Below, in pieces: positions 10,219 through 23,904 of a DNA stretch of 64,000 bases. Below the pieces are notes generated by a model. That model had not been told where the DNA came from and ran no database searches. It worked only from the letters and a program-made list of their open reading frames with translations. The first letter of the stretch is position 1. Each line of letters opens with the position of its first letter. The stretch comes from an uncultured Planctomycetia bacterium (GTDB lineage: Bacteria > Omnitrophota > Gorgyraeia > 1-14-0-20-64-10). The position numbers and the translations under genes are program-made. Location of the stretch: the NCBI GenBank assembly GCA_964597545.1, contig CAZQXN010000005.1, forward strand, positions 12,647 through 76,646, in the 5' to 3' direction.

Positions 10219-12182
10219 ACAGGCACCAAAATGGGATCCTGCCTAAAAGGGCTGGATGGGGCGCAAGGCGCATCCTCACGGGCAGTTCCCTCAACATCGC
10301 GAACCGCCTGCATGATCTCTGCACGCAGGCGCTCGATCGACTTGCCATCAGAAAAGAAGCTAAAATCTTTGGCCAACCGCTCAAGCCCTGCTTTGGGCCA
10401 AGCATTCTTCAGGAGTCTCCCGACTGCCTGCGCGACATCGTCACCGGATTTGAGGACCCAGGCTCGATTGTATTGCCCCAGGAAGCTGTCGGCCGTGCCC
10501 ATGTGGTCAAAGGCAGCGCATGGAATACCGGCAACCGCTGCTTCTAAGAGTCCTGTGGTGTGGCTGCCCCCTATGACCAAGTCGCTGACCGACATCCAGG
10601 CATAGGTGTCCAGCCATTCGGCATCGGAAGTAATGCGGGCATCTTGAGCAAGAATCTCCTCCAGGCCGAAGGCCAACCACTGGCGCTTTAGCGTTTCTGA
10701 GCGAAAGCGGCAAACCACTTGGAAGTTCCCGGTAAGCGTCTTGAGGCGCCTCAGTCCCTCAAGTAGGGCCTGGGCTCTCGAGCGCAGCACAAACCACTCT
10801 TTGAGGTTCGGCAAAAGCAGCAAGATACGGGGGTGCACAGTGCCAAACTGCCTTTGGCAAGCCTTGAGCAATTCCTGCCTCGCCGGCTTCCGCTGTGCGC
10901 GCAAGATCAGATCCGTGCGATAGGCCCCGATGGGCAACTGGCGCATGCCAGCCCAGTGCGGGCCGAAAAGATCCGCAAAGCCCTTCCCCCAAACACAGAG
11001 CCTGTGGATGGTGGTGTAGCGCATGCCCGGAAGGATTTGAGGAGCGATGGGATTTCCATGGTGCATTCCAAGGGTCAGTCGGTTGAGCTGGCGTGCGACG
11101 ATGGAGCGGACGACATGGGCCGGAGAGTAATCCTGGTACTCCAACCACACCTTATAGCTCACTGTGCGGGCAAAGCGCAGCTCCTTAAGATAGGTTCTTA
11201 TCAGTGCAGCCGAGGCAGCAGCAAACCGCGGTTCCTCCACCCAGAAAAGAGGCCGCAGTGCCAGGCTCCAGGAGCGCAGGCACAGCCCCGCCAGCTCAAT
11301 CAACCCTGCGCGGCCTACAGGCAGCTGCTTTGGGTTGACGTATCGAATCCCCTGCTCCTGCATGCGCTGACGCTGAGCCAGAAGCGCTTGGGTGCTGAGG
11401 CGCCAGTCCCCCTGGCAGAAGAGAACACGCTCTGGGGTAAGTTCTCCGCCCAGCAGCAGACCATCGTCATGTCCTGCCCACTGGGGCTCATTCGGATCCC
11501 GAAAACCTGATGTGAGCGGCATGGCCACATCTGTTTTGATGGGAGTTGCAGTCCGACGTACGCCGCCGCAGAGAATGGCCTCAAGCACTGGGTGAATGGA
11601 GAAGGCAAAAAGGTGGAAGACGTTGATTAACCCCAGGGTATGCGCTGTTCTGCGCAGCAGATGCGCAGCCCTCAACCAGAGGCGCACGCCCACTGGGACC
11701 ATTGCCTGCACCAAAGCGTCCTGAGCCAACTTGTGCTCGTCGAAGCGCTCGGGCAAGAGAACAAGCCGGCCCTCCCGCTTGAGGGCAGCCGCCGTTCGAT
11801 AGAAAAGGGTTTGGGATAAGAGCTCGGGCAGGAGCCTGAGCTTGTAGTAACGCTCAAGGCAATCAGTCTCAATTAAAACACTCATGCGCTGAAAGCTTAC
11901 GGATCTTTGCGCCGAATGAAACAGGCGCTCCATGGGCTCGGCAGAGGCCTCGTTGTTTTTGTGCCAGAGGGGCAGGAAGATCTCTTGTGGAACCTCGGAA
12001 AGATCGGCTCCAGGATTCAACCAGCGGATAAGGCGCAGGGTAGCCTGCACAATCCAAGCGGGCGCCCCCCTGCCCCCATACAGATCGTGCGGCGGGAAAA
12101 ATAGGATGCGCTGGGCGCGCACAAGGGTTCCGCAGGCAAGAAGGGTTTTCCAGATGCTGTGGCGCCCAAACAGAACGGTCAT
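10215..12182 (-). CDS. large hypothetical protein with KpsC/KpsS-like (capsule polysaccharide biosynthesis, GT-B-type) C-terminal region; candidate CMP-ulosonic acid transferase
   Basis: 655 aa. C-terminal SDLVIGGSHTTGLLEAAVAGIPCAAFD resembles the conserved donor-binding stretch of the Capsule_synth / KpsC-KpsS family. Paralogous motifs occur in the 34818 and 41226 genes. Assignment is tentative. Confidence 0.4.
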   Translation of the reverse strand: MTVLFGRHSIWKTLLACGTLVRAQRILFFPPHDLYGGRGAPAWIVQATLRLIRWLNPGADLSEVPQEIFLPLWHKNNEASAEPMERLFHSAQRSVSFQRMSVLIETDCLERYYKLRLLPELLSQTLFYRTAAALKREGRLVLLPERFDEHKLAQDALVQAMVPVGVRLWLRAAHLLRRTAHTLGLINVFHLFAFSIHPVLEAILCGGVRRTATPIKTDVAMPLTSGFRDPNEPQWAGHDDGLLLGGELTPERVLFCQGDWRLSTQALLAQRQRMQEQGIRYVNPKQLPVGRAGLIELAGLCLRSWSLALRPLFWVEEPRFAAASAALIRTYLKELRFARTVSYKVWLEYQDYSPAHVVRSIVARQLNRLTLGMHHGNPIAPQILPGMRYTTIHRLCVWGKGFADLFGPHWAGMRQLPIGAYRTDLILRAQRKPARQELLKACQRQFGTVHPRILLLLPNLKEWFVLRSRAQALLEGLRRLKTLTGNFQVVCRFRSETLKRQWLAFGLEEILAQDARITSDAEWLDTYAWMSVSDLVIGGSHTTGLLEAAVAGIPCAAFDHMGTADSFLGQYNRAWVLKSGDDVAQAVGRLLKNAWPKAGLERLAKDFSFFSDGKSIERLRAEIMQAVRDVEGTAREDAPCAPSSPFRQDPILVPV

Positions 12183-14182
12183 GCTCCGGCCTCCAGCGGT
12201 TGAGGTGCTTGAGCCGCCTTCTCAGATTGAAGCTGCCACAGCCGGGCGTAGATTCCTCCGCGGACTAAAAGGGTTTCGTGGCTGCCCTGTTCGACTAAGC
12301 GGCCCCGATCTAAGACCAAGATTTGATCTGCCTGGGCAACGGTTGAAAGACGGTGGGCGATGATCAAGAGGGTTCTACGCCGCCGCTCGGCTTCGAGCGC
12401 CTCCTGGATGAGCCGCTCTGACTCAGAGTCTAGGGCAGAGGTTGCCTCGTCCAAGATCAGCAGCTGGGGTTGGCGCACCAAGGCGCGGGCCAGCGCAATC
12501 CTTTGGCGCTGCCCACCGGAGAGCCGATAGCCCCTGTCTCCGATCACGGTGCTGTAGCCATCGGCCAGCTCCTTGATAAAGCAGTCTGCATGTGCGGCTT
12601 GCGCCGCAGCCAAAATCTCTTCCTCGGTTGCGCCGGGTTTGCCAAAGGCGATGTTGTCCCGAATGCTTGCGTGGAAGAGAAAGGGTTGCTGGCTGACTAC
12701 ACCCAGATGTTGGCGCCATGCATGCGAAGAGAGGGCAGCCAGGGGTTGCCCATCAACAACGATCTGACCCGAGGTGGGTTCGTAGAGCCTTAGCAGCAAA
12801 TCAGCTACAGTTGATTTCCCAGCGCCGGAAGTGCCCACCAGCGCGGTCATGGATCCGCGCGGCATCTCAAAGGTTAGCCCTGACACCGCAGCTGGTTCAT
12901 CTGGATGATAGGTCAGGGTGACGCGATCGAAAGCAACCTTCCCCTTGAGGCCGGAAAAATCCCTTCCGGACTCTGCGGCTCGGGTGTCTTCCGGCTGTTG
13001 CAGAATTTGATTGAGGCGTCCGATGCTGGGCCCAAAGCGTGCCAGGGTAGTGCGAGCGCTGTAAATGGATCTCAGCCGCGGGGCCATCCGATGCAGCGCC
13101 AATAAGAAGGCCAACAACGAAGGCAAGGCGGCCTGGGTTCCGGAGCCTAAAACAAAGAATCCTCCCAGCAGCAGAGCGCCTGCTCCCAGCACGGTCAGGA
13201 TATCGGTCAGGGGCTCTACGGTGCTGCCCCAAATGCTGGCAAGGCAACGGCTGCGCATCCCCTCTTGCGCCAAGCGCCCCACGGTTTGCGTGGAGCGCTC
13301 TTGTGCGGAAAAGGTATGGAGCGACCGAATGGCCGAAAGGAATTCTGTGGCCCGCTCGCTTAGGGTGACAGTTTTCTCAGTGAAGCGGCGCGCATGCTGC
13401 CCTACCCGGGAGATGGCCTTGCGCAGAGCCCAGGTCATGGCCCCGGCCAATACTGCTGCCACTGCGGTCATGGGCCAGGAAATCCAAAGCATGAGGGCCA
13501 CATAGACAGCGACCAGCAGGACGCTTCGCAACAGGACGTTAAGCTCTGAAATGATTTCATGCAAGTAATTCGTGTGGCTAAGGTAGTCGGTCAGATCCCC
13601 AAGCTTGTATCGGCTGGCAGCAGGAAAGCTTAAATGCATGACACGCGAGAAGATGCGCTTATAGGCGTCGGCCTGAACGCGGGTGTGTAGGATGGCGGCT
13701 GAGACCTCACCCAAGAATTGCAGTAGGCTGCGCAGGACCTGAAAACCGACCGCCAGAAGCACAAGGCTTAAGAACAGCGGTGCTCTGCCCAACGCCAAGC
13801 TCTCCAACCACTGTCCGAATGCACCATAAGTTGCTGCCAGCGTTTGCTCGGGCGAAGCACCCAGCACTTGAAGGCCGACAGCCAAAAGCCCAATGCTGCT
13901 GCCTTCAAAGATGGCTGCAACCAGGTTGGCTGTAAAGGCGAGGGCAAGAAAACCCCAGGCAGGACGGATCAGATCCCAGATCAAAACAAAGGGGTTACGG
14001 TTTTTTTGGATAGCGCGCTGCCGCGCCTTCGGGGAGCTAATGTTCATCACATGAACATCCCATATCCTATCTGGCTTGTCAAGGGGTTTTGAGGGGTGAT
14101 GGGCCGGCAGGCAGACACTGTAACACGTTTGAATATAAGGAGTTACAACATCAAGCCCAAGCGAATTTACACTTGAGAACAA
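12179..14182 (-). CDS. ABC exporter, fused permease + ATPase (MsbA/PglK-like type I exporter)
   Basis: 667 aa. Six predicted TM helices, then Walker A (GTSGAGKST), signature LSGGQRQRIALARAL and Walker B ILDEATSALD. Confidence 0.9.
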   Translation of the reverse strand: MFSSVNSLGLDVVTPYIQTCYSVCLPAHHPSKPLDKPDRIWDVHVMNISSPKARQRAIQKNRNPFVLIWDLIRPAWGFLALAFTANLVAAIFEGSSIGLLAVGLQVLGASPEQTLAATYGAFGQWLESLALGRAPLFLSLVLLAVGFQVLRSLLQFLGEVSAAILHTRVQADAYKRIFSRVMHLSFPAASRYKLGDLTDYLSHTNYLHEIISELNVLLRSVLLVAVYVALMLWISWPMTAVAAVLAGAMTWALRKAISRVGQHARRFTEKTVTLSERATEFLSAIRSLHTFSAQERSTQTVGRLAQEGMRSRCLASIWGSTVEPLTDILTVLGAGALLLGGFFVLGSGTQAALPSLLAFLLALHRMAPRLRSIYSARTTLARFGPSIGRLNQILQQPEDTRAAESGRDFSGLKGKVAFDRVTLTYHPDEPAAVSGLTFEMPRGSMTALVGTSGAGKSTVADLLLRLYEPTSGQIVVDGQPLAALSSHAWRQHLGVVSQQPFLFHASIRDNIAFGKPGATEEEILAAAQAAHADCFIKELADGYSTVIGDRGYRLSGGQRQRIALARALVRQPQLLILDEATSALDSESERLIQEALEAERRRRTLLIIAHRLSTVAQADQILVLDRGRLVEQGSHETLLVRGGIYARLWQLQSEKAAQAPQPLEAGA

Positions 14183-16110
14183 GAATGGTTTATATGATAA
14201 ACCGAGCCTGGTTGAGGTTGTTCAAAGTGGGGATTCTCAAACTGCCGCAGCCAGATCTCAAGGGTCACCAGCAACCAGAGGAAGTGGCCTAAATCTTTCT
14301 GCCCGGACAGGTGATCGTTAAGCGCCCAACGTACGCTTGCCAGGTGAAGATACCGGCTCAGCATAGGCTTCGGTCCACCCAGTAGATCGCAAAGGGAATC
14401 TTTCCAGCTTCCACGAAACCAGGCGGCCAGAGGAACGCCAAAGCCCATCTTACCCCTTCCCCGAATAGGCCCAGGGAGCAGCTCGCTTAACGCGCGCCGC
14501 AAAATCCATTTGGTGGTGCCGCGCTTCAACTTCAGGTCATCCGGCAAACCAAAGGCCCATTCGGTCAGGGGCGTATCCAGGAACGGGGAGCGGACCTCAA
14601 GTCCGTGCGCCATGGTGCAGCGGTCCGCTTTGACGTTGAGGTCGTTCGGGAGATACTCCTCAAAATTGAGTCGAAGCAAGGCAGAGAGGGTCTCCTCCCG
14701 AGGAAGACCATTGAGTGCAGCATAGGCTGGGGGCAAAGAAGCCTTTGCGTGAGAGGGTGCAATAAAGAGATCTGATGGATTTTGATGCAACGCTACCCAC
14801 CGCAGATACCGCTCGCCCAGCGGCAAATCGGCGCTCTCTAAAAAGCGCCTCGCTCGCGCCCAAGGGGAGCGCTGGCTTCTTCCCGGGGGGGCTAATCGCA
14901 GCAGAGCCCGTCCTGCCTTGAGCGCGAGCGGAGGAAGTTCCTCGGCCAGCAATGCGGCTCGGAAGCGCTCGTAGCCGGCAAAGAGCTCATCACCTCCATC
15001 GCCGCAGAGGGCAACCGTCACTTGACTGCTGACCAACTCTGAGAGGAGGTAGGTCGGTAAACCAGAAGAATCTCCAAAGGGCTCGTCGTAATGGGCCACC
15101 AGCTTCTCAATTAGGTCGAACGGTGGAGGATGAACCGTAAAGGCGGTGTGATCTGTCTGGAACTGCTTGGCTGCAATTTCGGCAAAATTCGTTTCGTTGA
15201 AACGCCGGTCCCCTTCAAACCCAATGCTGAAAGTCTTGAGGCTCCCCTTGGGCAGCTGCCTGGCCATCAAGCCCACCACAATGGTGGAGTCAATCCCGCC
15301 GCTCAATAAAGCCCCCAGGGGAACATCTGAGACCATGCGCTTGGTGACTGCTTCAGTCAGGAGTTCCTTCGCTTGGGCGGTTGCCTGCCCCAGGGCAATC
15401 GGGTGCTTTTGCATCGGTGGAAGGGTCCAGTACCGACGAGAAGATACCTTGCCCTGCCCCAGATGAAACTGGAGCCAAGTCGCTGGGGGCACTTGACGGA
15501 TCCCTGCGTAACAGCTCTGGCCCGGCGGAGGAAATCCAAAGGTAACGAGTGAACTCAATGCCCCCTCGTGGATCTTCCGGGGCAGGTGCGCGTGAAGCAA
15601 GAGAGCTTTGATCTCTGAGCCAAAAACTACGCAGTTGGAATGGGCCCAATAGAAGAGGGGCTTCTTCCCGGCTCGATCGCGCACCAAGGTGAGGATCCGG
15701 GCGCGAGAGTCCCAAAGGCAAAAGGCAAACATCCCATCGAGGCGCTGGAGAGTTTTCTCAAGCCCCCACCGCTCCACCGCCTGCAGGATGACCTCTGTGT
15801 CGGATTGGCTGCGAAACTGGCACCCCTCGGAGGCCAGCTGCGATCGAAGTTGGCGGAAGTTGTAAATCTCACCGTTGTGGAGAAGCCAGCGGGTGCCGTC
15901 CGAGTTTGACATCGGTTGACGGGCGGCAGCGGTCAGATCGATCACCTTCAGCCGCGCGTGGACCAGTCCCACCCCGGCCTCGGGGGCAGCTACGCACAGC
16001 TCATCCGGACCGCGATGACGCAGAGACCAAGCCATCGCCTCCAATTCCTGCAGAGAGACAGGCTGACCGTCTGTATGAAGAATTCCGCTAAATCCACACA
16101 TGATTGTCAT
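14167..16110 (-). CDS. asparagine synthase (glutamine-hydrolysing)-family amidotransferase (PseA/WbpS-like)
   Basis: 647 aa. N-terminal MCGFSG catalytic Cys, SGGIDS PP-loop. ATG at 16110. Confidence 0.85.
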   Translation of the reverse strand: MTIMCGFSGILHTDGQPVSLQELEAMAWSLRHRGPDELCVAAPEAGVGLVHARLKVIDLTAAARQPMSNSDGTRWLLHNGEIYNFRQLRSQLASEGCQFRSQSDTEVILQAVERWGLEKTLQRLDGMFAFCLWDSRARILTLVRDRAGKKPLFYWAHSNCVVFGSEIKALLLHAHLPRKIHEGALSSLVTFGFPPPGQSCYAGIRQVPPATWLQFHLGQGKVSSRRYWTLPPMQKHPIALGQATAQAKELLTEAVTKRMVSDVPLGALLSGGIDSTIVVGLMARQLPKGSLKTFSIGFEGDRRFNETNFAEIAAKQFQTDHTAFTVHPPPFDLIEKLVAHYDEPFGDSSGLPTYLLSELVSSQVTVALCGDGGDELFAGYERFRAALLAEELPPLALKAGRALLRLAPPGRSQRSPWARARRFLESADLPLGERYLRWVALHQNPSDLFIAPSHAKASLPPAYAALNGLPREETLSALLRLNFEEYLPNDLNVKADRCTMAHGLEVRSPFLDTPLTEWAFGLPDDLKLKRGTTKWILRRALSELLPGPIRGRGKMGFGVPLAAWFRGSWKDSLCDLLGGPKPMLSRYLHLASVRWALNDHLSGQKDLGHFLWLLVTLEIWLRQFENPHFEQPQPGSVYHINHSCSQV

Positions 16111-16888
16111 TCCCGCGGAAGCGGGAATCCCTAATCATTTCGAAACCGCCGCCTGATCCTCGCCCCTCGATCGGCTCCTCGCTTTCGCGAGGATGGGCAA
16201 GCTTCGCGAGGATAACATTCCACACTCGACCCAACTCATGTTTTAAGCGTTTTATAGGCATCTGCTTTTCTGCGCGCAAAGGTTCGGGTATCTCAAATGG
16301 GGTAAGTTGCTGTTTTAAGGGGCCGGTAAGCTCCTCGACACTTAAAAGATTTCCGCCTGCATCCCGTAATCCAACACCCTGCACAGCATCCCAGACAGTC
16401 CACCTGCCGTTTACCCGCACCAATGAGAGGACCCGCTTGCCGACCCCTTCCTCATGTCGAAGCACTTTCCAAAAGGCGGGATGCCCCGCATAGGTCGCCA
16501 GCGTCGAGAAGAGATCGCTGATTTGATCATCCGCACCATAACCACGCTGGATGATGTTCAAGATGTGGTCATCGACCACTGGGCTGCCGGGCGGCACAGG
16601 ACGAACGCAGCTGCGTACCCAGCTCAAGAGGGCCTTCAGGCGCGCCTCATCCTCTGTGAGCCCTCGCGTGATCTGGGCTGCCAGCCCGCGGTATGCCCCA
16701 TCCCGATGCAAGAACTGATAGAGCTTAAGCCCCAACGGAATTCGGTGTGCTGTGACCACATAGTTCAACCCCTGATGGGTTGCAACGGGCAGCGCAAGAA
16801 TCCCGGTCAGGGCAAGCAAGAAGCCCCCTACGAGGAGGGGCCGGAGGGTGCGCGGTCGCTGTCCCGCCAAAGCCATCGCTTTATCCAC
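16088..16888 (-). CDS. hypothetical signal-anchored protein (C-terminal ~50 aa doubtful because it reads through the repeat element)
   Basis: 266 aa ORF with an N-terminal hydrophobic segment (LLVGGFLLALTGILALPV). No confident family. The tail GRGSGGGFEMIRDSRFRGNDNHVWI is low complexity. Confidence 0.35.
   Translation of the reverse strand: MDKAMALAGQRPRTLRPLLVGGFLLALTGILALPVATHQGLNYVVTAHRIPLGLKLYQFLHRDGAYRGLAAQITRGLTEDEARLKALLSWVRSCVRPVPPGSPVVDDHILNIIQRGYGADDQISDLFSTLATYAGHPAFWKVLRHEEGVGKRVLSLVRVNGRWTVWDAVQGVGLRDAGGNLLSVEELTGPLKQQLTPFEIPEPLRAEKQMPIKRLKHELGRVWNVILAKLAHPRESEEPIEGRGSGGGFEMIRDSRFRGNDNHVWI
16105..16215. repeat. structured element: 8-bp perfect hairpin (attcccgc-ggaa-gcgggaat) plus inverted repeat atcctcgc/gcgaggat and an 11-bp direct repeat ttcgcgaggat x2
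   Basis: Read directly from sequence at 16109-16128, 16156-16163, 16184-16194 and 16203-16213. It lies immediately upstream (minus-strand sense) of the AsnB-like start and inside the low-complexity C-terminal tail of the 16088..16888 ORF. Plus-strand translation gives ...IPAEAGI.../MSFPRKRES..., reminiscent of translated small palindromic repeat elements. Confidence 0.4.
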
Positions 16889-17234
16889 CTAACAACCAGG
16901 GCTCTTTCCCAAAAACCCTCCTTCTGGAGAGGGCAAAGCCACAGGGTTGCGCCCAAAAGGAAGAGAAGAAGACGCCCCCACATTCCCCAAAGGAGAATGG
17001 GCTCAGCCCTGCAGAAAAGCAGCAGCGCATTGATCACGCCCGCAATCACCACAACGAATCCTGCTGCTTGGAGCGGCTGAGCCTCAAAGGCCTCTGAGGT
17101 GTGCCGAAACCATTGGCAGCGGTGCAAGGCTTGAGCCATGCTGCGCAGCTTGGCAAGGATACGATCCCACAGCTTGAGGCAACCTGAGGCCAACCGGCTG
17201 GAGATGAGAAAGGTCTTCCAAGGATCAGGGTTCA
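16828..17234 (-). CDS. small hypothetical membrane protein (two predicted TM helices)
   Basis: ATG at 17234 (MNPDPWKTF...) lies 10 nt before the DUF4330 gene stop, suggesting translational coupling. Hydrophobic stretches FVVVIAGVINALLLF and LLLFLLGATLWL. The longer track ORF (to 17328) overlaps the upstream gene and is likely over-extended. Confidence 0.3.
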
Positions 17235-18259
17235 TCAGAACCCCCCACTGGTTCAACAAGGATGGGCCTGGAGAGCACGATAAGCTCAAGGGGTTTACCC
17301 TGCTGCGGCAAGAAAATCCGATTTCCAATAACGATATGTTCTGCCTCTAGGTTGTAGTAGGGTGGACCACCCGGCACAATCTCGATCTGGCCCATCAAAC
17401 GCATTCGAGCAAAAACCAGATGCACAGCCTCCGAAGCGTCCTCATGAAGCGAAACGATGGGCAGTGCGCGGGATGTCAAAACCTCCAGGATCTCAGCGCT
17501 CACTCGGTCGAAACTGTCCTGGTAAATCCAGCCGGTTCGCAGCTGCTCTATTTGGTTGGGGTCAGAAGCGCGGACGACACAGTAAACCTCCAACGGAACT
17601 GCCGGCATCAACGGCTGGTCAATCCGTATGGCATCCGGTACCAGCAGGGAGAGATCGCTTTGCGGATTGTGCAGGGAGACCGAGTAGGATCCCTTCTGGA
17701 GTGATTGAATCCGATAATAGCTGGTGACATGCTGTGAATCTGTATAGGTCTTGTAGAGGGGGGCCAGGTTTCCCAGGCGGATGTCACAGCCCATCTCCAG
17801 ATATTTCCCCTGGACGATCAATGCGCCTGTTCCCTGCGGTGTAACGCGCAAACCCACCTGGTGGAGCTCTGGTCGCCAGAGGACTTTCAGTGGGGTATTT
17901 TTATAGATCATGCGCCCTCGCCCATTCCGAATCGAGATGGACGCATAGCCCGGGTTTATCTCTACGGGCAGAGCGAAGTCAATCTGCGCCTCATTCAAGA
18001 AACGCGGCACCAGCGCATACTCCCCCACCAGTACAGTGGTGTCGCGGTCAAAACCGCTGCCGGTGAGCATAACTCGTGCGTCGGGGCCGGCTTCGGCCAT
18101 GGCAGGCTCAACACATAAGAGCTTAAGCTCTGCGCTCCCCCGGAGGGTTTGATATCCAAAATAGAGCAGCGGCAAAGCAGAGGCGAGCAGGATCCAAACC
18201 AGCAGATCCAGCAGATGCATTCGGCCGAACACGCGTCCCTGAGAATCTATAATTTTCAT
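17225..18259 (-). CDS. DUF4330-family protein (N-terminal membrane anchor, Ig/TIG-like repeats)
   Basis: 344 aa. N-terminus MKIIDSQGRVFGRMHLLDLLVWILL matches the conserved DUF4330 start. Paralog of the 19659 gene. Confidence 0.6.
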   Translation of the reverse strand: MKIIDSQGRVFGRMHLLDLLVWILLASALPLLYFGYQTLRGSAELKLLCVEPAMAEAGPDARVMLTGSGFDRDTTVLVGEYALVPRFLNEAQIDFALPVEINPGYASISIRNGRGRMIYKNTPLKVLWRPELHQVGLRVTPQGTGALIVQGKYLEMGCDIRLGNLAPLYKTYTDSQHVTSYYRIQSLQKGSYSVSLHNPQSDLSLLVPDAIRIDQPLMPAVPLEVYCVVRASDPNQIEQLRTGWIYQDSFDRVSAEILEVLTSRALPIVSLHEDASEAVHLVFARMRLMGQIEIVPGGPPYYNLEAEHIVIGNRIFLPQQGKPLELIVLSRPILVEPVGGSDEP

Positions 18260-19662
18260 GCCGAACCACCCAAGGCATGCTTACCAGACAGCGCTCGAGG
18301 CCCGACTACAAGTCCCCATCCACCCGCTGAAGCCAAGATCAGCAGAAACGGTAGGACCATGTCCCTCATTCTCAAGACGGTTCCGGCGTTGCCGTTGGTC
18401 AGCGCCCCCAGAAGAATCCATGCACCTAAGAAACAGATGAGATACAGAGAGCGCTTGGCATTCCAAAAAAGGGAGAAAAGGAATCCTGCCAGGATCAGCG
18501 GAAGGAGCAGATACCACATCGCCATAATCGGGTACCAGGCGAGCGAAAAGAGAGAATCCATCCGTTTGGGCAGGGGCTCAACCAAGTAATGATAGATGGC
18601 TCGGCCGGCAGCGCGGCCGACAAAGGGGAGTGTGATCTTATCGCGGGAGGGCGTGTAGAAGGAACCGGGGGTATAGTGTTCCTCAGGAAGGTATCGGTAA
18701 GAAATCCCGGGCGTGCTGCAGAAACCCAAGTGGATTTGAAACGCCCTAAGAAAGAAGGGGCGGACATCCGGCCGAAACCCCACAAAGCCTACCAAAAGCC
18801 CCACGACGATCAAGGCTCGCCAGCGGAACCTCCAGGGATAAACCAAGATCCAGCCCACGGCTGTGCCGCCCAACAGGCCTAAGGAGTAGATCCCCGTTCG
18901 AAGCGTGGCATGAGCCATCAGGCAGAGAAGGCACAGGCCTCCCAGGAGGAGCCGCTGTTTCAGGGGACGCGCCTGCACAATCTTAAACGACAGCAGCAGC
19001 ACCAGGGCTGTCAAGAATAACAGGCTGGACTCCTTGAGATTGCTGGCCGACCAAAGCAGCAAGGAGGGCCACAGCGTTACCGCCACAGAAGCCCACCGGG
19101 CTACCGTGCCGTTGAAGCTGGCCTTTGCCAAGAAGAAAACCAAAAGCGCAAGACCCGCGCCCAAGAGACAGTTAATCCATTTAACCGCAATGGGGCTGTA
19201 TCCGAAGAGCGCGTAAAAGGCACCGACCACATAGGCGTAGCCATTCCAACCGTATGTCTGTTGCGCGCGATAGACGACAACCGGCTCTCGGACGCCCCGC
19301 GCAAACTGGACGATGGCATATCCCCGCTGAGAGAGGTAGTCGCTGTCCCCCATCCGCATGTACCAGCGCGTCTTATCCGTTACGCCCAGATCCCATTCCT
19401 GTGCGGGCCCGTACCGATGCGGCCACTCCTTCTCCATGACAGCCGAGATTCCGTCCAAGCCCAGCGAGAGGGCAACCCTCAGTAAAAAGGCAAAAACAAA
19501 TAGCCTCATGACAAAGCGTTTATCCGGTTGCGCTGCCCTTCTGTGCAGGGCCCAGGCGATACCCGCTGCCAAGGCCAAAAGAAACGCTCCGCCGGGTGAG
19601 TGGGTCCATAGTGCGCCCAGAAGGACGCCGAGAATGCCCAGGGAGGGCAAAGCCCGTTTCAT
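18256..19662 (-). CDS. polytopic integral membrane protein (polymerase/ligase- or GT-C-like, family unassigned)
   Basis: More than 10 hydrophobic helices. Start re-placed at the ATG (MKRALPSLGILGVLLG) that overlaps the upstream DUF4330 stop (ATGA). Confidence 0.5.
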   Translation of the reverse strand: MKRALPSLGILGVLLGALWTHSPGGAFLLALAAGIAWALHRRAAQPDKRFVMRLFVFAFLLRVALSLGLDGISAVMEKEWPHRYGPAQEWDLGVTDKTRWYMRMGDSDYLSQRGYAIVQFARGVREPVVVYRAQQTYGWNGYAYVVGAFYALFGYSPIAVKWINCLLGAGLALLVFFLAKASFNGTVARWASVAVTLWPSLLLWSASNLKESSLLFLTALVLLLSFKIVQARPLKQRLLLGGLCLLCLMAHATLRTGIYSLGLLGGTAVGWILVYPWRFRWRALIVVGLLVGFVGFRPDVRPFFLRAFQIHLGFCSTPGISYRYLPEEHYTPGSFYTPSRDKITLPFVGRAAGRAIYHYLVEPLPKRMDSLFSLAWYPIMAMWYLLLPLILAGFLFSLFWNAKRSLYLICFLGAWILLGALTNGNAGTVLRMRDMVLPFLLILASAGGWGLVVGPRALSGKHALGGSA

Positions 19663-20957
19663 TCCTCTTGCCTCACAAGCTGGAGCAACGGAATGGGCCG
19701 AGAAGCCACCTCTCCCATAACGGATGAGCCAGGAATGCGCACATTGATTTGAGCCCCCTCGAATAATTTCTGACCGCGGCACTCAAGGTATTGCTCCTTC
19801 CAGGAGGTCACGATTTCGATGGGGAGCACTACCTTCACCAGCGCGGATCCACCCTCCCTGCCCTTCTCGGCGCTTAAGACCGTGATGGTTTTGGCTGCGT
19901 TTTCGTCGGCAGTCTGAACCTCAGGGTGATCCGGGTAAAGCCGCGCCAGATCCAAATCGCTCAAGCCGGAAAATCGCAGTACCACCACCGCTCTTGTTGA
20001 GATAGAGCTTTTCGGGGGCGCCAAAGCACCCTTTTCAAGCACTGCCTCTGCGCCATCGGGACGGGTTACCTTCAACGGCAGCCAACCTGGGGCTGAAGGT
20101 CGAAACGGGTGCGGCAGAGTGGCTTTGAGCACCGATGGGCTTAACCGCTGCACCTCTTGCAAAGAAACATCGCCCAGGGTAACCTCGCAACCCTTTCGGA
20201 AATCAGATCCCAGGATCAGCAGCTGCCGCACCTGAGCATCAATCCGATTGGGGCGCACCAATCGGACAGAGAGAGCGGTCTCTTTCTCGGTGGCCGCGGA
20301 GCTTAAGGTGTCGGTTCGGCTTTTGGTGGCAATTCCCTGCCAATGTGCGGTTTCTTCATTGGCATTGGTGACGGTTACGTAATACAAGTCCTGCGTAAGC
20401 CTCTCACCCACAATGGCCTCCAGCCGCGTGGTGCTTTGATGAACGAACCCCAGCACGGGAAATGAATCAATCGCTACCCTGCAATCGGGACCGAAATAAT
20501 CTCCCTTGATGACCAGGAGGGTTGTGTCCATTGTGGTGGGCAGCACCTCCACCTGAGAAATGGAAGGTGCCCAAACCACCTCGAAGGCCTCCTCCAAGAG
20601 CACAAAGCGGCCTCGGCCGTTTCGGATGCCGAGCCGGAAGATCCCCTCCGGGAATTCCTTGGGAATCCCGATGTCAATCCAAACCTTGTTGACAAAGGTG
20701 ACGTTCGCAAACGGAAGGTGGCCCAACTGAGCGGCGGTTTGCCGGTCAAAACCGGTTCCAAGGACCGTTAACTTGTCGGTTTCGCCAGTCACGACACGCC
20801 TGGGAGAAACCTTCTGGATGGCCAACTCCCGTTGCCCCTTTAGGCTTTGCAAACCAAAAACAAGCATCGGCCAAAGCAAGGTCAATAAGAGCAGGCCGGC
20901 CAGGTCTAGGACGTGAATCTTTCCCAGCAATCGCCCCTGAGGATCAACGAGCCGCAA
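19659..20957 (-). CDS. DUF4330-family protein, paralog
   Basis: 432 aa. N-terminus MRLVDPQGRLLGKIHVLDLAGLLLLTLLWPMLVF parallels the 17225 gene. Repeated beta-rich segments. Confidence 0.6.
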   Translation of the reverse strand: MRLVDPQGRLLGKIHVLDLAGLLLLTLLWPMLVFGLQSLKGQRELAIQKVSPRRVVTGETDKLTVLGTGFDRQTAAQLGHLPFANVTFVNKVWIDIGIPKEFPEGIFRLGIRNGRGRFVLLEEAFEVVWAPSISQVEVLPTTMDTTLLVIKGDYFGPDCRVAIDSFPVLGFVHQSTTRLEAIVGERLTQDLYYVTVTNANEETAHWQGIATKSRTDTLSSAATEKETALSVRLVRPNRIDAQVRQLLILGSDFRKGCEVTLGDVSLQEVQRLSPSVLKATLPHPFRPSAPGWLPLKVTRPDGAEAVLEKGALAPPKSSISTRAVVVLRFSGLSDLDLARLYPDHPEVQTADENAAKTITVLSAEKGREGGSALVKVVLPIEIVTSWKEQYLECRGQKLFEGAQINVRIPGSSVMGEVASRPIPLLQLVRQEE

Positions 20958-21912
20958 AGCGCCCCCTCTCGGAGTCTGCGCACCCCCTGTTCAGCCCAGC
21001 GAAGAAGTTCACGACGTTCTGGGCACAGCGCAGCTCCATGGCTGCCCGGGAAGCCTGAGTCAATGAGGAGATGTGGGGCGTGAGGATGGCCTGAGGCATC
21101 TGGGCGAGTGGACCTTGGTACGGTTCGACCTGAAAGACATCCAGAGCCGCCCCTGAGAGGTGGCCTGATTGAAGGGCTTCAGTCAGGGCGACCTCATTCA
21201 CAAGATGCCCCCGGGCGGTATTGACCAAGCGGGCCCCAGGTTTCATGAGGGCAATTTCTGCTTTGTCCAGCAGGGGTCCTGCGTCCGGTTTGCGAGCAGC
21301 ATGCAGAGACACCACATCTGAGCGGCGAAGCAGCTCTTCGAGGGGAACCATGGCGACTCCGCTCGGCACCCCCTGCGCATTGACCTGGGGGTCGGTGGCG
21401 AGGAGGGTGGGTCCGAACGGCCGCAGCAGCGCCGCCGTAGCTCGGCCAATCCGCCCCAGACCTACCAAGCCGATTGTCCACTCCGAAAGGAGGTGGCCTG
21501 TCTCTTTGCGCCAGCGGCCCTGCCGAAAATCATGCAGGTGGCAAGAGAGGTTCCGGGCCAAAGACAAAATCATTGTAACGGCAAGCTGAGCAACCGCTGA
21601 AACCACTTCATCCGGAGTGGTTAGAATCTCGATCTTGTGGTGTCGAGCCGCCTCCAAGTCAATGGAATCGGTCCCGGTGCCGCAGCGGCTGATGCAGCGC
21701 AGTTCCGGAAGGGCCTGAAGTATCTCTGAATCGTAAGGCTCCACTCCAGCCAAAACCGCTTGGGCACCCCGCAGCTCCCTGGCCACCTCCTCCCGGCGCA
21801 ATCGATGACCCAGGGTGTTGCGCCGGAGGCTCAACCCTGCGGTATTGAGGAGCTCAAGGGGACGGTTGTCAGTTTCGCAAAACTGTTGGAGTGCAATATA
21901 AACTGATGGCAC
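20944..21912 (-). CDS. D-isomer-specific 2-hydroxyacid dehydrogenase (PGDH/LDH-D family)
   Basis: Catalytic/NAD domain GLVGLGRIGRATA and RGHLVNEVALTEAL...LDVFQVEP. Start re-placed at the in-frame GTG at 21912 (MPSVYIALQQF...), 5 nt after the upstream gene stop, giving a ~322 aa protein. The 492 aa track ORF N-terminus is a low-complexity over-extension overlapping the 21921 gene. Confidence 0.75.
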   Translation of the reverse strand: MPSVYIALQQFCETDNRPLELLNTAGLSLRRNTLGHRLRREEVARELRGAQAVLAGVEPYDSEILQALPELRCISRCGTGTDSIDLEAARHHKIEILTTPDEVVSAVAQLAVTMILSLARNLSCHLHDFRQGRWRKETGHLLSEWTIGLVGLGRIGRATAALLRPFGPTLLATDPQVNAQGVPSGVAMVPLEELLRRSDVVSLHAARKPDAGPLLDKAEIALMKPGARLVNTARGHLVNEVALTEALQSGHLSGAALDVFQVEPYQGPLAQMPQAILTPHISSLTQASRAAMELRCAQNVVNFFAGLNRGCADSERGRFAAR

Positions 21913-21920
21913 CTGCGGCC

Positions 21921-23069
21921 TCAGGAAGGGTGTGTGGTTTGAACAGCGGCGCCGGGAGTCATGGGAAGCGTTTTTCCGGTGGCGGTACGCTCGCCGATGT
22001 ATTCGAAATAGGGATTGTTGGCAATCTTTTCCGTGAAGAACAGGGCCTTGCGGTGATACAGGTAGGGATTCGAGAAGATGGGGCAGACGCCAAAATGGAG
22101 GCGCCGTCGATCTTCCGCGCAAATGGGATAGTCCGCTATGGTCAGGTCGGTTTTGTAGGTCGGCCACGATTGAATCCGGTTGACCAGGAAAAGGATGCGG
22201 GCGTTCTGCACGGGGGCGGATTGCATGTAAAAATTGAACCAGTCCCGCGTCATCTCGCCAAATGAGGCGCAGTTGAATACCAGGTCCGCGGCATCCGGCT
22301 CCAGCATGCTGAATTTTGGGCAGGGCAGCAGCACAAAGTCGTACTGGCTCAGCCACTTGCGGTTTAGGGTGGTTTCCTGAAGCACTTCTCGGATTCCGGC
22401 AATGCGGGCCTTCGGCATCCACATCTTGAGGAAGTAGCGGGCCAGGAGGAGCTGTTCTGAAAAATCAGCCAGGATATGGTGCGTCCCTGGCCACTCCTGG
22501 CTGACGAGACCCGAGAAGATGCCGTAGCTTGAACCGATATCCAAAACAAGGTCCCCCGCTTTAAGCCCATCGCCGAGCGTATCCCGAAGAACGCTTTGGC
22601 ACCAAATGTGCTTGAGCCACCGGTAGGTCACCGCATGGCCCATGCGCCGGTAGACGAACGGCTGGCCCACCGGCGTGCAGGGATACTTTCGAAGGAGTGC
22701 TTCAGCGGTGGGGCTCGTCCGGATGACTTCCAGGCATTCGTCCAGCGTATGCCGAATTCCACGGCGCCCTCCCCCGATGAGGTTCCGGGGATCAAGTCGG
22801 TTGATGTAGAAGGTGGGGGCATCCGGGATGAAGATCCGAAGCCGGCGAAACTGCCGGAAAGCCTGCGGGTCAATGGAGCCGTCTTGACGAAAGAGACGGC
22901 CGGGCTCCTTGGAAACCAAGGCGCGCCACTTCGGGGGAAGCTTCTGCCTGGGCAGCCCCAGCAAACCTGCCTCTCGGGCCGCCTGGGCATCTGCCTGGAT
23001 CTCGGCCAACACTTCCTGTTCAATCCGGAGGGTGGAATCAGTCATTTTTGACACAGAGAAACCCAACAA
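21921..23069 (-). CDS. methyltransferase-fold protein downstream of CmoA; weak CmoB-like (carboxymethyltransferase) resemblance
   Basis: 382 aa. Rossmann-type stretch DLVLDIGSSYGIFSGLV...HILADFSEQLLLARYF loosely aligns with E. coli CmoB (RTILDVGCGSGYHMW...AVGIDPTQLFLCQFEA). Overlaps the CmoA-like gene by 32 nt. Family assignment uncertain. Confidence 0.45.
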   Translation of the reverse strand: MLGFSVSKMTDSTLRIEQEVLAEIQADAQAAREAGLLGLPRQKLPPKWRALVSKEPGRLFRQDGSIDPQAFRQFRRLRIFIPDAPTFYINRLDPRNLIGGGRRGIRHTLDECLEVIRTSPTAEALLRKYPCTPVGQPFVYRRMGHAVTYRWLKHIWCQSVLRDTLGDGLKAGDLVLDIGSSYGIFSGLVSQEWPGTHHILADFSEQLLLARYFLKMWMPKARIAGIREVLQETTLNRKWLSQYDFVLLPCPKFSMLEPDAADLVFNCASFGEMTRDWFNFYMQSAPVQNARILFLVNRIQSWPTYKTDLTIADYPICAEDRRRLHFGVCPIFSNPYLYHRKALFFTEKIANNPYFEYIGERTATGKTLPMTPGAAVQTTHPS

Positions 23070-23781
23070 AGTTGTACCACTGGAAAAAAGTCTCGGCGAT
23101 CTGGAAACCGGATCGCCTGAAAAGCTCTAGATCTTCATCGATTTGAAACGGTATCAAAACGTTTTCCAAGGCTTCACGCTTTCGCACGATCTCCTCGTTG
23201 CTGTAGCCGTTTCTCTTCTTGAAGGCGTAATAATTCTCGATGAACAGCCGGTTCATCTCGCCGCTGCGGGTCAGCACCTTCTCTGTCACAATGAATGCTC
23301 CGCCGCTGACCATCGATTGGTAGATGTGGCGGATGAGGCGGTCCCTGTACAGGGGGCGAACAAACTGAAGGGTCCAGCAGAGGGTAACAACGCTGGCATT
23401 TTCGAGGGAGAGATCGGGGTCGCTGATGTCCCGGCAGTGGATCTCGATCTGCTGTTCCAACTTCCTCTCTCTAACATGGGTCTTGGCCTGCTGAACCATC
23501 GGCTCCGAGCTGTCGTAACCCACCAACCGGGCCGATGGATCCTGAAGTATCTGGGCAGCGTTGATGAGCGTTGTTCCGGTGGAGCAACCCAGGTCGTAGG
23601 CCCGGGTGCCGGGGAGATAAAACTGCTTGGCCAACTCCTGAATCAGCATCTGCTGCTCCCGGTAAAAAGGGACGCTTCGGACCAACATGTCATCGAAGAC
23701 AGCGGCCACCTCACTGTTGAATTCGAAGTCGCTCCCTCGAGAAGCGGTACCCTGAAACACCTGATCTTTGCTCTTTTGCAT
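23038..23781 (-). CDS. cmoA: carboxy-S-adenosyl-L-methionine synthase homolog (CmoA family)
   Basis: Colinear similarity to E. coli CmoA over the full length: FNSEVAAVFDDMLVRSVPFY / PGTRAYDLGCSTG / ENASVVTLCWTLQF / SGGAFIVTEK / FKKRNGYSNEEIVRKREALENVL / FQWYNFVGF. ATG at 23781 is preceded by a GGAAAGGGG SD-like sequence. Confidence 0.8.
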   Translation of the reverse strand: MQKSKDQVFQGTASRGSDFEFNSEVAAVFDDMLVRSVPFYREQQMLIQELAKQFYLPGTRAYDLGCSTGTTLINAAQILQDPSARLVGYDSSEPMVQQAKTHVRERKLEQQIEIHCRDISDPDLSLENASVVTLCWTLQFVRPLYRDRLIRHIYQSMVSGGAFIVTEKVLTRSGEMNRLFIENYYAFKKRNGYSNEEIVRKREALENVLIPFQIDEDLELFRRSGFQIAETFFQWYNFVGFLCVKND

Positions 23782-23904
23782 GATTGCCTTGCCCCTTTCC
23801 TGCTGCCTCACTGAAAAGAAATCAAACTGCATTCCCTCAACTTCACCGCCGTTTTGAGAACCTTCTCAAAGGGCTCCTCGTTGGCTTGAGTGACATCATA
23901 GAGT

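Follow-up and report, generated by a model that had tools for sequence, protein, structure and literature searches.

Gene organization of the locus

The window, that is, the whole analysed stretch of 64,000 nucleotides, contains a module of five overlapping genes on the minus strand, identified from the list of open reading frames and their translations and named here, in gene order, D_A, G, D_B, s and T. D_A (positions 19659-20957, 432 aa) and D_B (17225-18259, 344 aa) encode DUF4330-type bitopic proteins and lie on either side of G (18256-19662, 468 aa), the gene of a candidate compact GT-C-fold glycosyltransferase similar to PMT_2 and GT39. They are followed by s (16828-17235), encoding a small 135-aa membrane protein with approximately two TM helices, and by T (16088-16876), encoding a transglutaminase-like protein of about 262 aa with an N-terminal TM anchor. 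The elements named in a sequence-only reading of this DNA are all present at the positions given there, on the minus strand.

The start codon of D_A is TTG at 20957. It is preceded by GAGAGGGGG and overlaps the stop of an upstream dehydrogenase gene (20944) by 14 nt. The ATG of G overlaps the stop codon of D_A in an ATGA at 19662-19659, as had been noticed earlier and is seen by direct reading, and a second ATGA, absent from the earlier account, joins G and D_B at 18259-18256. The ATG of s (17235-17233) lies in another frame, 11 nt inside the 3' end of D_B; thus it overlaps the end of the D_B gene, and not the stop codon itself as had been proposed. ATGA overlaps are frequent in operons and alone mean nothing special; the arrangement is significant because the G-D gene pair is conserved in related loci (see below).

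DUF4330-type proteins with inserted TIG domains

Judged by their BLASTP alignment (E 4e-29, 29% identity over 256 aa), D_A and D_B are true paralogs, as had been suggested. In D_A, the N-terminal motif MRLVDPQGRLLGK and a single TM helix are followed by three IPT/TIG domains and then by the C-terminal beta domain. D_B has the N-terminal motif MKIIDSQGRVFGR, a TM helix (residues 16-43), two TIG domains (46-127 and 131-213) and a C-terminal domain (221-330). The AF2 model of D_B (pLDDT 92.6) has the TM helix, both TIG domains and the C-terminal domain. The beta-rich repeats of the sequence-only reading are real and turn out to be IPT/TIG domains, which score above the Pfam threshold in both D_A (32.7 bits) and D_B (24.1 bits).

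The DUF4330 label (PF14221) needs a qualification. Both window proteins are below the gathering score of 27.6 bits (D_A 19.9 bits, D_B 23.9 bits), and their matches are limited to the first 34-39 residues, where the motif M-x-x-x-D-x-x-G-R-L-F-G-K and the TM helix correspond to profile positions 1-39. No Pfam match was obtained with the C-terminal domains of D_A and D_B alone. On the other hand, 48 of 53 short relatives match DUF4330, and 48 of 53 match TIG. The C-terminal domain of one relative matches DUF4330 positions 55-167 (33.6 bits), and the same protein with its TIG region deleted matches positions 2-167 with 74.3 bits. The C-terminal profile of the window-type D proteins aligns along its full length to this domain, which links them to the distal part of DUF4330, and a D_B construct with the TIG domains removed scores 27.7 bits. 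Since the C-terminal domain of the relative matches positions 55-167, the D family, by profile comparison, is DUF4330 interrupted, after the anchor and before the C-terminal domain, by an insertion of one to three IPT/TIG domains.

Foldseek search with the D_B model retrieved tandem Ig/IPT proteins. Among the best matches was SGBP-B of Bacteroides (PDB 6e9b, 6e57, 6d2y; E 1.7e-6, probability 1.0, but a TM-score of only 0.2-0.36), which likewise has a lipid or membrane anchor, tandem Ig-like spacers and a distal C-terminal domain. However, this match is driven by generic Ig-like domains, and the anchor type and the cellular compartment differ.

Conservation among the D proteins is highest in the cytoplasmic N-terminal motif, in the TM helix and in an RNGRGR patch. 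Their serine plus threonine content is ordinary (8-13%), and neither S/T/P-rich linkers nor a conserved D/E-x-N-x-S/T sequon were found. No catalytic domain could be recognised in them. In the literature searched, we found no mention of DUF4330 or PF14221.

A candidate GT-C glycosyltransferase

The AF2 model of G (pLDDT 83.3, pTM 0.85) contains about 13 membrane helices, in agreement with the earlier count of more than ten. GT-C enzymes make up 18 of its 19 best Foldseek matches (probability 0.99-1.0). The top ones are STT3, ArnT, Pmt4 and AglB, with probability 1.0 and TMq 0.40-0.47, although the E-values are only about 1e-3 and the TM-scores remain below 0.5. The first periplasmic loop carries an acidic motif, D70 plus G-D106-S-D108-Y (GDSDY), that is invariant in 21 homologs. 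The PMT_2 score of G itself, 19.6 bits, is below the cut-off of 26.1 bits; PF13231 or PF02366 is present in most of 22 homologs, two of which bear the name glycosyltransferase family 39. The predicted fold and the acidic motif thus identify G as a compact glycosyltransferase of the ArnT/PMT/STT3 class. In enzymes with this fold, the donor of the transferred sugar or glycan is a polyprenyl-phosphate carrier, and the reaction takes place on the periplasmic side of the inner membrane.

G resembles the GT-C_A enzymes of the ArnT/PMT type (CAZy GT83/GT39; PF13231 PMT_2, PF02366 PMT) in its polytopic architecture, in the invariant acidic residues of the first extracytoplasmic loop and in the family tags of its homologs. 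Unlike ArnT and STT3, which have a C-terminal periplasmic domain, and PMT, which has a MIR domain, the 468-aa G has only short periplasmic loops. It also differs in being almost always paired with a DUF4330/TIG gene; to our knowledge, no such pairing has been described for ArnT or PMT.

The sequence-only reading had considered a role of the set as a polymerase or as an export scaffold. No convincing likeness to the Wzy, WaaL, Wzx, MOP or ABC families was found in Pfam or in the fold search, and the sole SEDS-type match was RodA, with probability 0.23. Given the GT-C fold and the PMT tags of the homologs, the assignments to a transporter, to an export scaffold and to a Wzy-type polymerase were rejected, although G could still be a polymerising GT-C enzyme.

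Accessory and flanking genes

The protein s matched no Pfam or NCBIfam family. Its two hydrophobic helices span residues 57-75 and approximately 81-100; the second does not reach a strict Kyte-Doolittle threshold, whereas the first does. In three related loci (L001, L006, L022) a homolog is encoded at the corresponding place, and a purpose-built HMM detected matches in ten more (L011, L013, L014, L023, L024, L026, L030, L031, L033, L038). In L005, s forms the N-terminal part of a fusion with a methyltransferase.

T matches Transglut_core of Pfam with 25.3 bits (cut-off 23). Its catalytic cysteine is replaced, G-A-D-D-Q standing in place of G-x-C. T is 45-52% identical to proteins of L006 and L004, and the residue at the cysteine position is D, A or E. 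T was also found in L011, L022, L023 and ERZ27297570. In L004, T forms the C-terminal part of a fusion with a GT-C enzyme of the GT87 family. Both s and T co-occur with the G-D pair in many loci.

Downstream of T lies the gene of an AsnB-like glutamine amidotransferase (14167-16101, minus strand) with Asn_synthase and GATase matches in Pfam; its true start is MCGFSG at 16101. The best NCBIfam match is the XrtA/PEP-CTERM amidotransferase (531 bits, below the cut-off of 816.9). This gene adjoins the module in L001, L006, L022 and L023, and is a frequent downstream companion outside the module core. An ABC exporter is encoded close to G (12179-14182). On the upstream side, the minus strand encodes a D-isomer 2-hydroxyacid dehydrogenase (20944-21924, the upper coordinate being approximate; 2-Hacid_dh_C, 170 bits). 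The listed 492-aa ORF is over-extended, the domain beginning at about residue 207. This upstream neighbour is conserved: in L006, L018, L019, L022 and ERZ27297570 it immediately precedes D or a GT2-G pair.

Conservation of the G-D pair

We considered 35 related loci in which a close homolog of G is present and a flank could be read, from Omnitrophota and Planctomycetia-labelled MAGs and from metagenomes. In 33 of them, D is the direct neighbour of G and has the same orientation, usually with an overlap of 4 or 17 nt, and in look-ups begun from D a G gene was adjacent in four of five cases. The gene orders are G-D-s, D-G-s, G-D-G-D (L010 and L013, where the pair is duplicated as a unit) and D-G-D-s-T. 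The latter is also found in L022, where both D lineages have orthologs: that of D_A upstream of G (49% identity; another, also upstream of G, is in L018), and that of D_B downstream (41-42% identity). The number of D genes and of TIG domains differs between loci. The two paralogs flanking G, correctly described for the window, represent one of several layouts; what is conserved is a single G accompanied by one or more D genes directly beside it, upstream or downstream. A search for G-D fusion proteins gave none.

All D loci examined lie among glycosyltransferase, cytidylyltransferase, AsnB-like amidotransferase and similar genes. This neighbour survey supports the proposed link of DUF4330 to glycan genes and the proposal of a dedicated membrane or envelope glycan module, which recurs inside glycan-biosynthesis loci. 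D can also exist without an adjacent G, as a distant low-GC organism (L021/L023, 36% GC) has the order AsnB-T-D-s-GT4 with no GT-C gene within 8 kb. However, the L023 sequence is only 8 kb long, and G may be located elsewhere in that genome.

Functional interpretation

The explanation that we prefer, and to which we give an even chance, takes D, s and T to be periplasmic accessory subunits that assist a GT-C enzyme in a late, periplasmic step of glycan transfer. G would be a minimal enzyme, essentially the membrane module alone, lacking a large periplasmic acceptor-binding domain. The D proteins would be its bitopic, N-in/C-out partners, docking at it via the conserved cytoplasmic motif and the TM helix, while their periplasmic part would comprise the C-terminal beta domain and a stalk built of one to three Ig-like TIG domains. 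D would provide in trans a function that other GT-C enzymes have within their own polypeptide, namely to hold, position or measure the acceptor glycoconjugate. The protein s and the Cys-less membrane-anchored T would be further subunits, and together they may act late in the periplasm, transferring or modifying the glycan that the surrounding 64-kb operon produces. As the window has a single G for two old D paralogs, the subunits may form one G:D_A:D_B assembly, or there may be two alternative G-D complexes. The physical interaction of G and D, the topology, the role of D, and the donor and acceptor are inferred here, whereas the gene structure with its overlaps, the paralogy, the GT-C fold with its acidic motif, the domain architecture of D and the conserved adjacency of G and D are shown by the analysis.

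Similar layouts are known. In SEDS-bPBP pairs (RodA-PBP2, FtsW-PBP3) and in STT3 with the single-pass OST subunits, a membrane-embedded transferase of lipid-linked sugars is also encoded or assembled with a single-TM protein that has a large extracytoplasmic domain; the analogy is one of layout only. D has no sequence or fold relation to PBPs or OST subunits and no recognisable catalytic domain. In the GtrA/GtrB/GtrC and ArnC/ArnEF/ArnT systems, a GT-C enzyme and a small membrane protein are likewise encoded together, and several related loci also have a GT2 gene directly upstream. However, this GT2 lacks C-terminal TM helices, does not resemble GtrB or ArnC, and has no adjacent ortholog in the window; s, with its two or so TM helices, matches neither GtrA nor SMR; and D and T have no counterpart there.

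Several observations count against the preferred explanation. For the families compared, neither G nor the two D proteins reach the gathering thresholds of Pfam, and canonical DUF4330 may occur in organisms without this GT-C family. The D genes without an adjacent G in L021/L023, the negative search for G-D fusions, and the modest Foldseek E-values and TM-scores of G weigh in the same direction. Moreover, G would not strictly need a partner, since other minimal GT-C enzymes (PimE/GT87, ALG) work without a large periplasmic domain. One alternative, which we consider unlikely though worth weighing, is an envelope module independent of G and made up of D, s, T and the AsnB-like amidotransferase, for instance an anchor, a device for chain length or placement, or a glycan-amidation complex; G would then be merely a frequent neighbour in Omnitrophota-type glycan loci. 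The G-less order in L021/L023, the presence of s and T next to D in many loci, and the status of DUF4330 as a separate family with its own N-terminal motif are consistent with that. On the other hand, where a close G exists D is nearly always directly beside it, mostly with overlapping stop and start codons; the two genes are duplicated together; the T fusion in L004 ties the accessory set to GT-C chemistry; and the G-less case comes from a short sequence.

Another alternative is that the D proteins are the acceptor: a PMT/GT39-like G would attach glycans to their periplasmic Ig-like domains, and D_A and D_B would be membrane-anchored surface glycoproteins. This agrees with the GT39 names of the nearest named relatives and with the protein-glycosylating PMT and STT3 among the top fold matches; extracytoplasmic Ig-like domains and variable copy and domain numbers are common in surface proteins, and genes of enzyme and substrate are sometimes neighbours. 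Yet the ordinary serine and threonine content, the lack of S/T/P-rich linkers and of a conserved sequon, best-conserved regions without any candidate glycosite, and D without an adjacent G in L023 make an acceptor role, raised also in the sequence-only reading, rather improbable. It is very unlikely that G is a Wzy/WaaL-like polymerase or ligase, or an exporter, with D as its export or polymerisation scaffold; a polymerase or an export scaffold had been the initial suggestion. G is indeed polytopic and lies in a glycan locus near the ABC exporter, and some GT-C enzymes (Emb, Aft) are processive or polymerising, AftD being a weak fold match of G; but the profile and fold searches gave no convincing similarity to the corresponding families, and the best matches are non-polymerising GT-C_A enzymes.

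As accessory subunits of a GT-C glycosyltransferase or otherwise, the D proteins are linked to G by conserved adjacency, and this pairing gives the uncharacterised DUF4330 family its first functional context.

Gene organisation

Five consecutive genes were identified on the minus strand at 16088-20957 by ORF calling and translation of the window. The most upstream gene (19659-20957) encodes D_A, one of two DUF4330-type bitopic paralogs (432 aa, N-terminus MRLVDPQGRLLGK). Its TTG start at 20957 is preceded by GAGAGGGGG and has a 14-nt overlap with the stop of the 2-hydroxyacid dehydrogenase gene upstream. The polytopic membrane protein G (18256-19662, 468 aa) starts within an ATGA at 19662-19659 and ends within a second ATGA at 18259-18256. 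The second paralog, D_B (17225-18259, 344 aa), has the N-terminus MKIIDSQGRVFGR. It is followed by s, a small protein of about two TM helices (16828-17235, 135 aa), whose ATG at 17235-17233 lies 11 nt inside the end of the D_B gene. The last gene, overlapping that of s, encodes the membrane-anchored transglutaminase-like protein T (16088-16876). D_A and D_B align with 29% identity across 256 aa (BLASTP, E 4e-29) and, judged from this alignment, are true paralogs.

The sequence-only reading had described two DUF4330 paralogs flanking a protein with more than ten TM segments, and this description is correct apart from two points. The ATG of s overlaps the end of the D_B gene but not the stop codon itself, and the reading recorded the ATGA at 19662-19659 but missed the one at 18259-18256. 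It had also placed a repeat element near the set. However, the window contains no tandem repeats, and the sole candidate near the set is a single palindrome at 16106-16131, unique in the window. It is a perfect hairpin, GGGATTCCCGCttccGCGGGAATGAC, between T and the gene of an AsnB-like glutamine amidotransferase, and is read through as the tail of the T ORF ('...RFRGNDNHVWI'). It may be a terminator, an attenuator or a REP-like element.

Two neighbouring ORFs are over-extended. In the 2-hydroxyacid dehydrogenase ORF (20944-22422, 492 aa) the domain begins near residue 207, and at its full listed length the ORF overlaps the NanM-like gene. For the AsnB-like ORF (14167-16110), the start should instead be placed at MCGFSG (ATG 16101), in keeping with a class-II amidotransferase.

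G as a compact GT-C-fold glycosyltransferase

The AF2 model of G (pLDDT 83.3, pTM 0.85) shows about 13 membrane helices joined by short loops only. Sequence search gave no PDB match, and matches were obtained by fold comparison alone. The top Foldseek matches in the PDB are STT3, ArnT, Pmt4 and AglB (probability 1.0, TMq 0.40-0.47, E ~1e-3). Transporters and RodA rank far below these, and the possibility that G is a transporter or a Wzy-type polymerase was rejected on these grounds.

The score of G against Pfam PMT_2 is 19.6 bits, below the gathering score of 26.1. Sixteen of its 22 homologs (27-55% identical to G) have precomputed PF13231 or PF02366 hits (PMT_2/PMT), and two, in Omnitrophica MAGs, are named 'glycosyltransferase family 39'. 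In the alignment of 21 homologs, D70 and the motif G-D106-S-D108-Y are invariant; they lie in the loop that first follows the early TM helices. GT-C enzymes typically carry an acidic motif in their first extracytoplasmic loop, and D70, D106 and D108 are candidate catalytic residues. Taken together, the fold matches, the invariant acidic loop and the tags of the homologs make G, by its predicted fold, a compact GT-C-fold glycosyltransferase. Within the GT-C_A class it is a new, minimal member: whereas ArnT, STT3 and PMT have a periplasmic domain, G has none.

A three-component Gtr/Arn system was considered and rejected, as both the membrane-anchored GT2 and a flippase of the GtrA or SMR type are missing beside G. 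No GtrB/ArnC/Ppm-like donor synthase adjoining G was identified. In other loci G is preceded by a GT2 that lacks TM helices and thus is not a donor synthase of the GtrB/ArnC type; no ortholog of this GT2 is adjacent to G in the window. The s protein matches neither the GtrA nor the SMR families. RodA-PBP2 and STT3 with its single-pass subunits also combine a polytopic transferase with a bitopic partner. However, the G-D(-s-T) module resembles them in layout only.

The D proteins and DUF4330

Both D proteins contain TIG domains (PF01833; D_A 32.7 bits, D_B 24.1 bits, Pfam cut-off 20.9). The matches to DUF4330 (PF14221, gathering score 27.6) cover profile positions 1-39 in D_A (19.9 bits) and 1-34 in D_B (23.9 bits), and neither protein reaches a full-length match above the gathering score. 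In silico deletion of the TIG domains gave DUF4330 scores of 21.2 bits for D_A and 27.7 bits for D_B. Both proteins have the N-terminal motif and, after it, one TM helix. Across the family, N-terminal residue D18 is invariant and G8 and G12 almost so. The AF2 model of D_B (pLDDT 92.6) consists of a short N-terminal segment, a TM helix (16-43), two Ig-like beta sandwiches (46-127 and 131-213) and a mostly-beta C-terminal domain (221-330). Its fold matches are generic tandem Ig/IPT proteins (the IPT domains of Met and plexin; Bacteroides SGBP-B).

The family was revealed by exhaustive search of representative proteins with HMMER, which yielded 1081 proteins at E <= 1e-3. About 50 of the 150 best are short proteins (260-570 aa) aligned from residue 1, and the remainder of these 150 are giant TIG-repeat proteins. 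The short relatives share the N-terminal motif M-x-x-x-D-x-x-G-R-L-F-G-K; 48 of 53 match DUF4330, and the same number match TIG (E <= 0.01). A word-indexed search with D_B retrieved only D_B itself, and the results of a search with a six-sequence D alignment were dominated by generic TIG proteins.

The C-terminal fragments of D_A and D_B taken alone have no Pfam match. A profile of this domain gave nothing significant against the PDB and Pfam, with weak suggestions of small beta-barrels only. The link to DUF4330 is provided by P0151 (569 aa), a D relative from loci L021 and L023, in which two TIG domains precede a tandem array of three DUF4330 C-terminal domains. The last of these alone matches DUF4330 positions 55-167 (33.6 bits), and P0151 with its TIG domains deleted in silico matches positions 2-167 (74.3 bits). 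The profile of the window-type C-terminal domain aligns from end to end with the C2 and C3 domains of P0151 (16.1 and 11.9 bits), an indirect comparison made via P0151. From these matches and the profile alignment, the D family is, at the sequence level, probably DUF4330, that is, an N-terminal anchor and a C-terminal beta domain, with one to three inserted TIG domains. A search of the literature library for DUF4330 or PF14221 found no paper, and the protein cluster tables contain no names for the proteins.

The s and T proteins

T scores 25.3 bits against Pfam Transglut_core (PF01841, cut-off 23). However, it lacks the catalytic Cys of G-x-C: in three aligned homologs this position is D, A or E, followed by invariant D-Q (G-A-[D/A/E]-D-Q; the register relative to the Pfam motif was set by eye). 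Despite the lack of this Cys, T is 45-52% conserved across loci. Among the proteins collected there are only two fusions of the Rosetta-stone type, a T domain at the C-terminus of a GT87 GT-C glycosyltransferase (L004, 4594-6681) and s fused to a methyltransferase (L005). No fusions of G with D, s or T were found in this collection.

Conservation of the module

HMMs were built for G, D, s and T, and every fetched locus was scanned. The survey of genomic context was anchored mainly on G, with five exact-protein look-ups from D. A scan of JGI metagenomes seeded with a three-sequence D alignment found nothing. The relatives come from Omnitrophota MAGs, MAGs labelled Planctomycetia, and groundwater and sediment metagenomes.

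D adjoins G on the same strand in 33 of the 35 loci where a close homolog of G is present and one flank or both could be read, and the two genes usually overlap by 4 or 17 nt. The order G-D(-s)(-T) occurs in L001, L004-L006, L008, L011, L019, L024, L027-L029, L037-L040, L042 and L043, and the order D-G(-s) in L009, L018, L020, L025, L026, L030-L032 and L034. G-D-D-s was observed in L014, and tandem G-D-G-D in L010 and L013. The order of the window, D-G-D-s-T, recurs in L022. There the wider synteny is also the same: two short-chain dehydrogenases (SDR-SDR), cytidylyltransferase, 2-hydroxyacid dehydrogenase, D-G-D-s-T, AsnB, ABC exporter and the 655-aa protein. Among six distant G-like genes (27-32% identity), four have no D (L003, L016, L017, L036), and those of L039 and L040 have one.

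In the look-ups from D, G is adjacent in four of five cases. The exception is an organism with 36% GC (L021/L023), in which AsnB, T, D (P0151; L021 693-2402, L023 4517-6226) and a 185-aa s homolog occur together, and there is no GT-C gene within 8 kb. In a rough NJ tree, D_A of the window groups with the upstream D of L022 and with that of L018, and D_B groups with the downstream D of L022; therefore the duplication predates the split of these genomes. G and D have been inherited, overlapped and duplicated together.

The glycan array

A single uninterrupted minus-strand array of about 55 genes (427-63970) extends through the window, and at most junctions stop and start codons overlap. Almost all of the genes are glycan-related, and no plus-strand gene of convincing size was found in the 64-kb window. 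The array contains several NeuB and cytidylyltransferase genes and PseB/PseC-like enzymes.

A CmoA homolog (23038-23832) scores 224.6 bits on TIGR00740 (carboxy-S-adenosyl-L-methionine synthase, cut-off 193.3), and a NanM-like sugar O-methyltransferase (21921-23069; TIGR04371, 83 bits) lies directly downstream. The position of this pair within the glycan operon is a hint that a sugar, rather than tRNA, is carboxymethylated. A fusion of PEP mutase with a MobA-like nucleotidyltransferase (31146-32840, 564 aa), found also near the G-D pair of L019, suggests decoration of the glycan with a nucleotide-activated phosphonate.

Two further polytopic proteins (44560-46080, 506 aa, at least 9 TM; 55805-58156, 783 aa, at least 11 TM) match no Pfam family and not the G profile. 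Each could be a polymerase, a ligase, a flippase or another GT-C enzyme. Two half-transporters of ABC_membrane+ABC_tran architecture each lie beside a large protein with no Pfam family (12179-14182 + 10215-12182; 39440-41491 + 41226-43349). The large proteins (655 and 707 aa) have weak C-terminal similarity only (E 0.002), and the first pair is retained after AsnB in L022. The operon also encodes three B12-binding radical-SAM enzymes (51860-53575, 58161-59777, 61648-63237), and three similar genes adjoin the distant G homolog of L003.

Possible mechanism and alternatives

We give about even chances to a model in which D binds G through its N-terminal motif and TM helix and supplies acceptor handling on the periplasmic side in trans, with s and T as further subunits. 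D would be oriented with its N-terminus in and its C-terminus out, and its conserved motif and TM helix would dock onto G. D would thereby provide the periplasmic acceptor-handling part that G is missing, and the variable number of TIG domains may act as a spacer.

Another possibility is that D, s, T and AsnB constitute a module of their own and G is merely a frequent neighbour, as the G-less arrangement of L023 would suggest. However, it is contradicted by the adjacency of D and G in 33 of the 35 loci, by the GT87::T fusion and by the duplication of G and D as pairs, and we consider it rather unlikely. If G is PMT-like, D could be its glycoprotein substrate. This is improbable, as D has neither an S/T-rich linker nor a conserved sequon; a role as a mucin-like O-glycosylation substrate was rejected, its composition giving no support. 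The sequence-only reading had proposed an acceptor, polymerase or export scaffold for the glycan. That G itself is a polymerase, ligase or exporter is highly unlikely, as neither its fold nor its family supports this.

The subunit model, with D docked onto G, may tentatively be taken further, although we find this extension doubtful. In this view the GT-C glycosyltransferase could be a split enzyme, with the DUF4330 proteins as its detachable periplasmic 'arm'. G alone would be inactive or unspecific, exchangeable bitopic partners would confer acceptor specificity or reach, and the stalk of one to three TIG domains would set the working distance from the membrane. With the two ancient paralogs of the window, a single enzyme could then act on two acceptors, or hold one acceptor clamped from both sides. 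Were this the case, the function of the entire DUF4330 family would be defined, and with it a modular principle new to GT-C enzymes.

GT-C enzymes assemble extracytoplasmic glycoconjugates, for example in N- and O-glycosylation, lipid A modification and arabinan synthesis. To our knowledge, no part of their mechanism is less well understood than acceptor recognition. In the module described here, a minimal GT-C enzyme is accompanied by Ig-domain partners that are separate proteins, conserved and co-duplicated; if these partners are real subunits, the module would lend itself naturally to separating catalysis from acceptor handling. The module provides the first testable functional context for DUF4330, with G as a concrete candidate partner, and likewise for the Cys-less transglutaminase-like T. 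It also bears on the envelope biology of Omnitrophota and related bacteria of the PVC group, which are known almost only from metagenomes.
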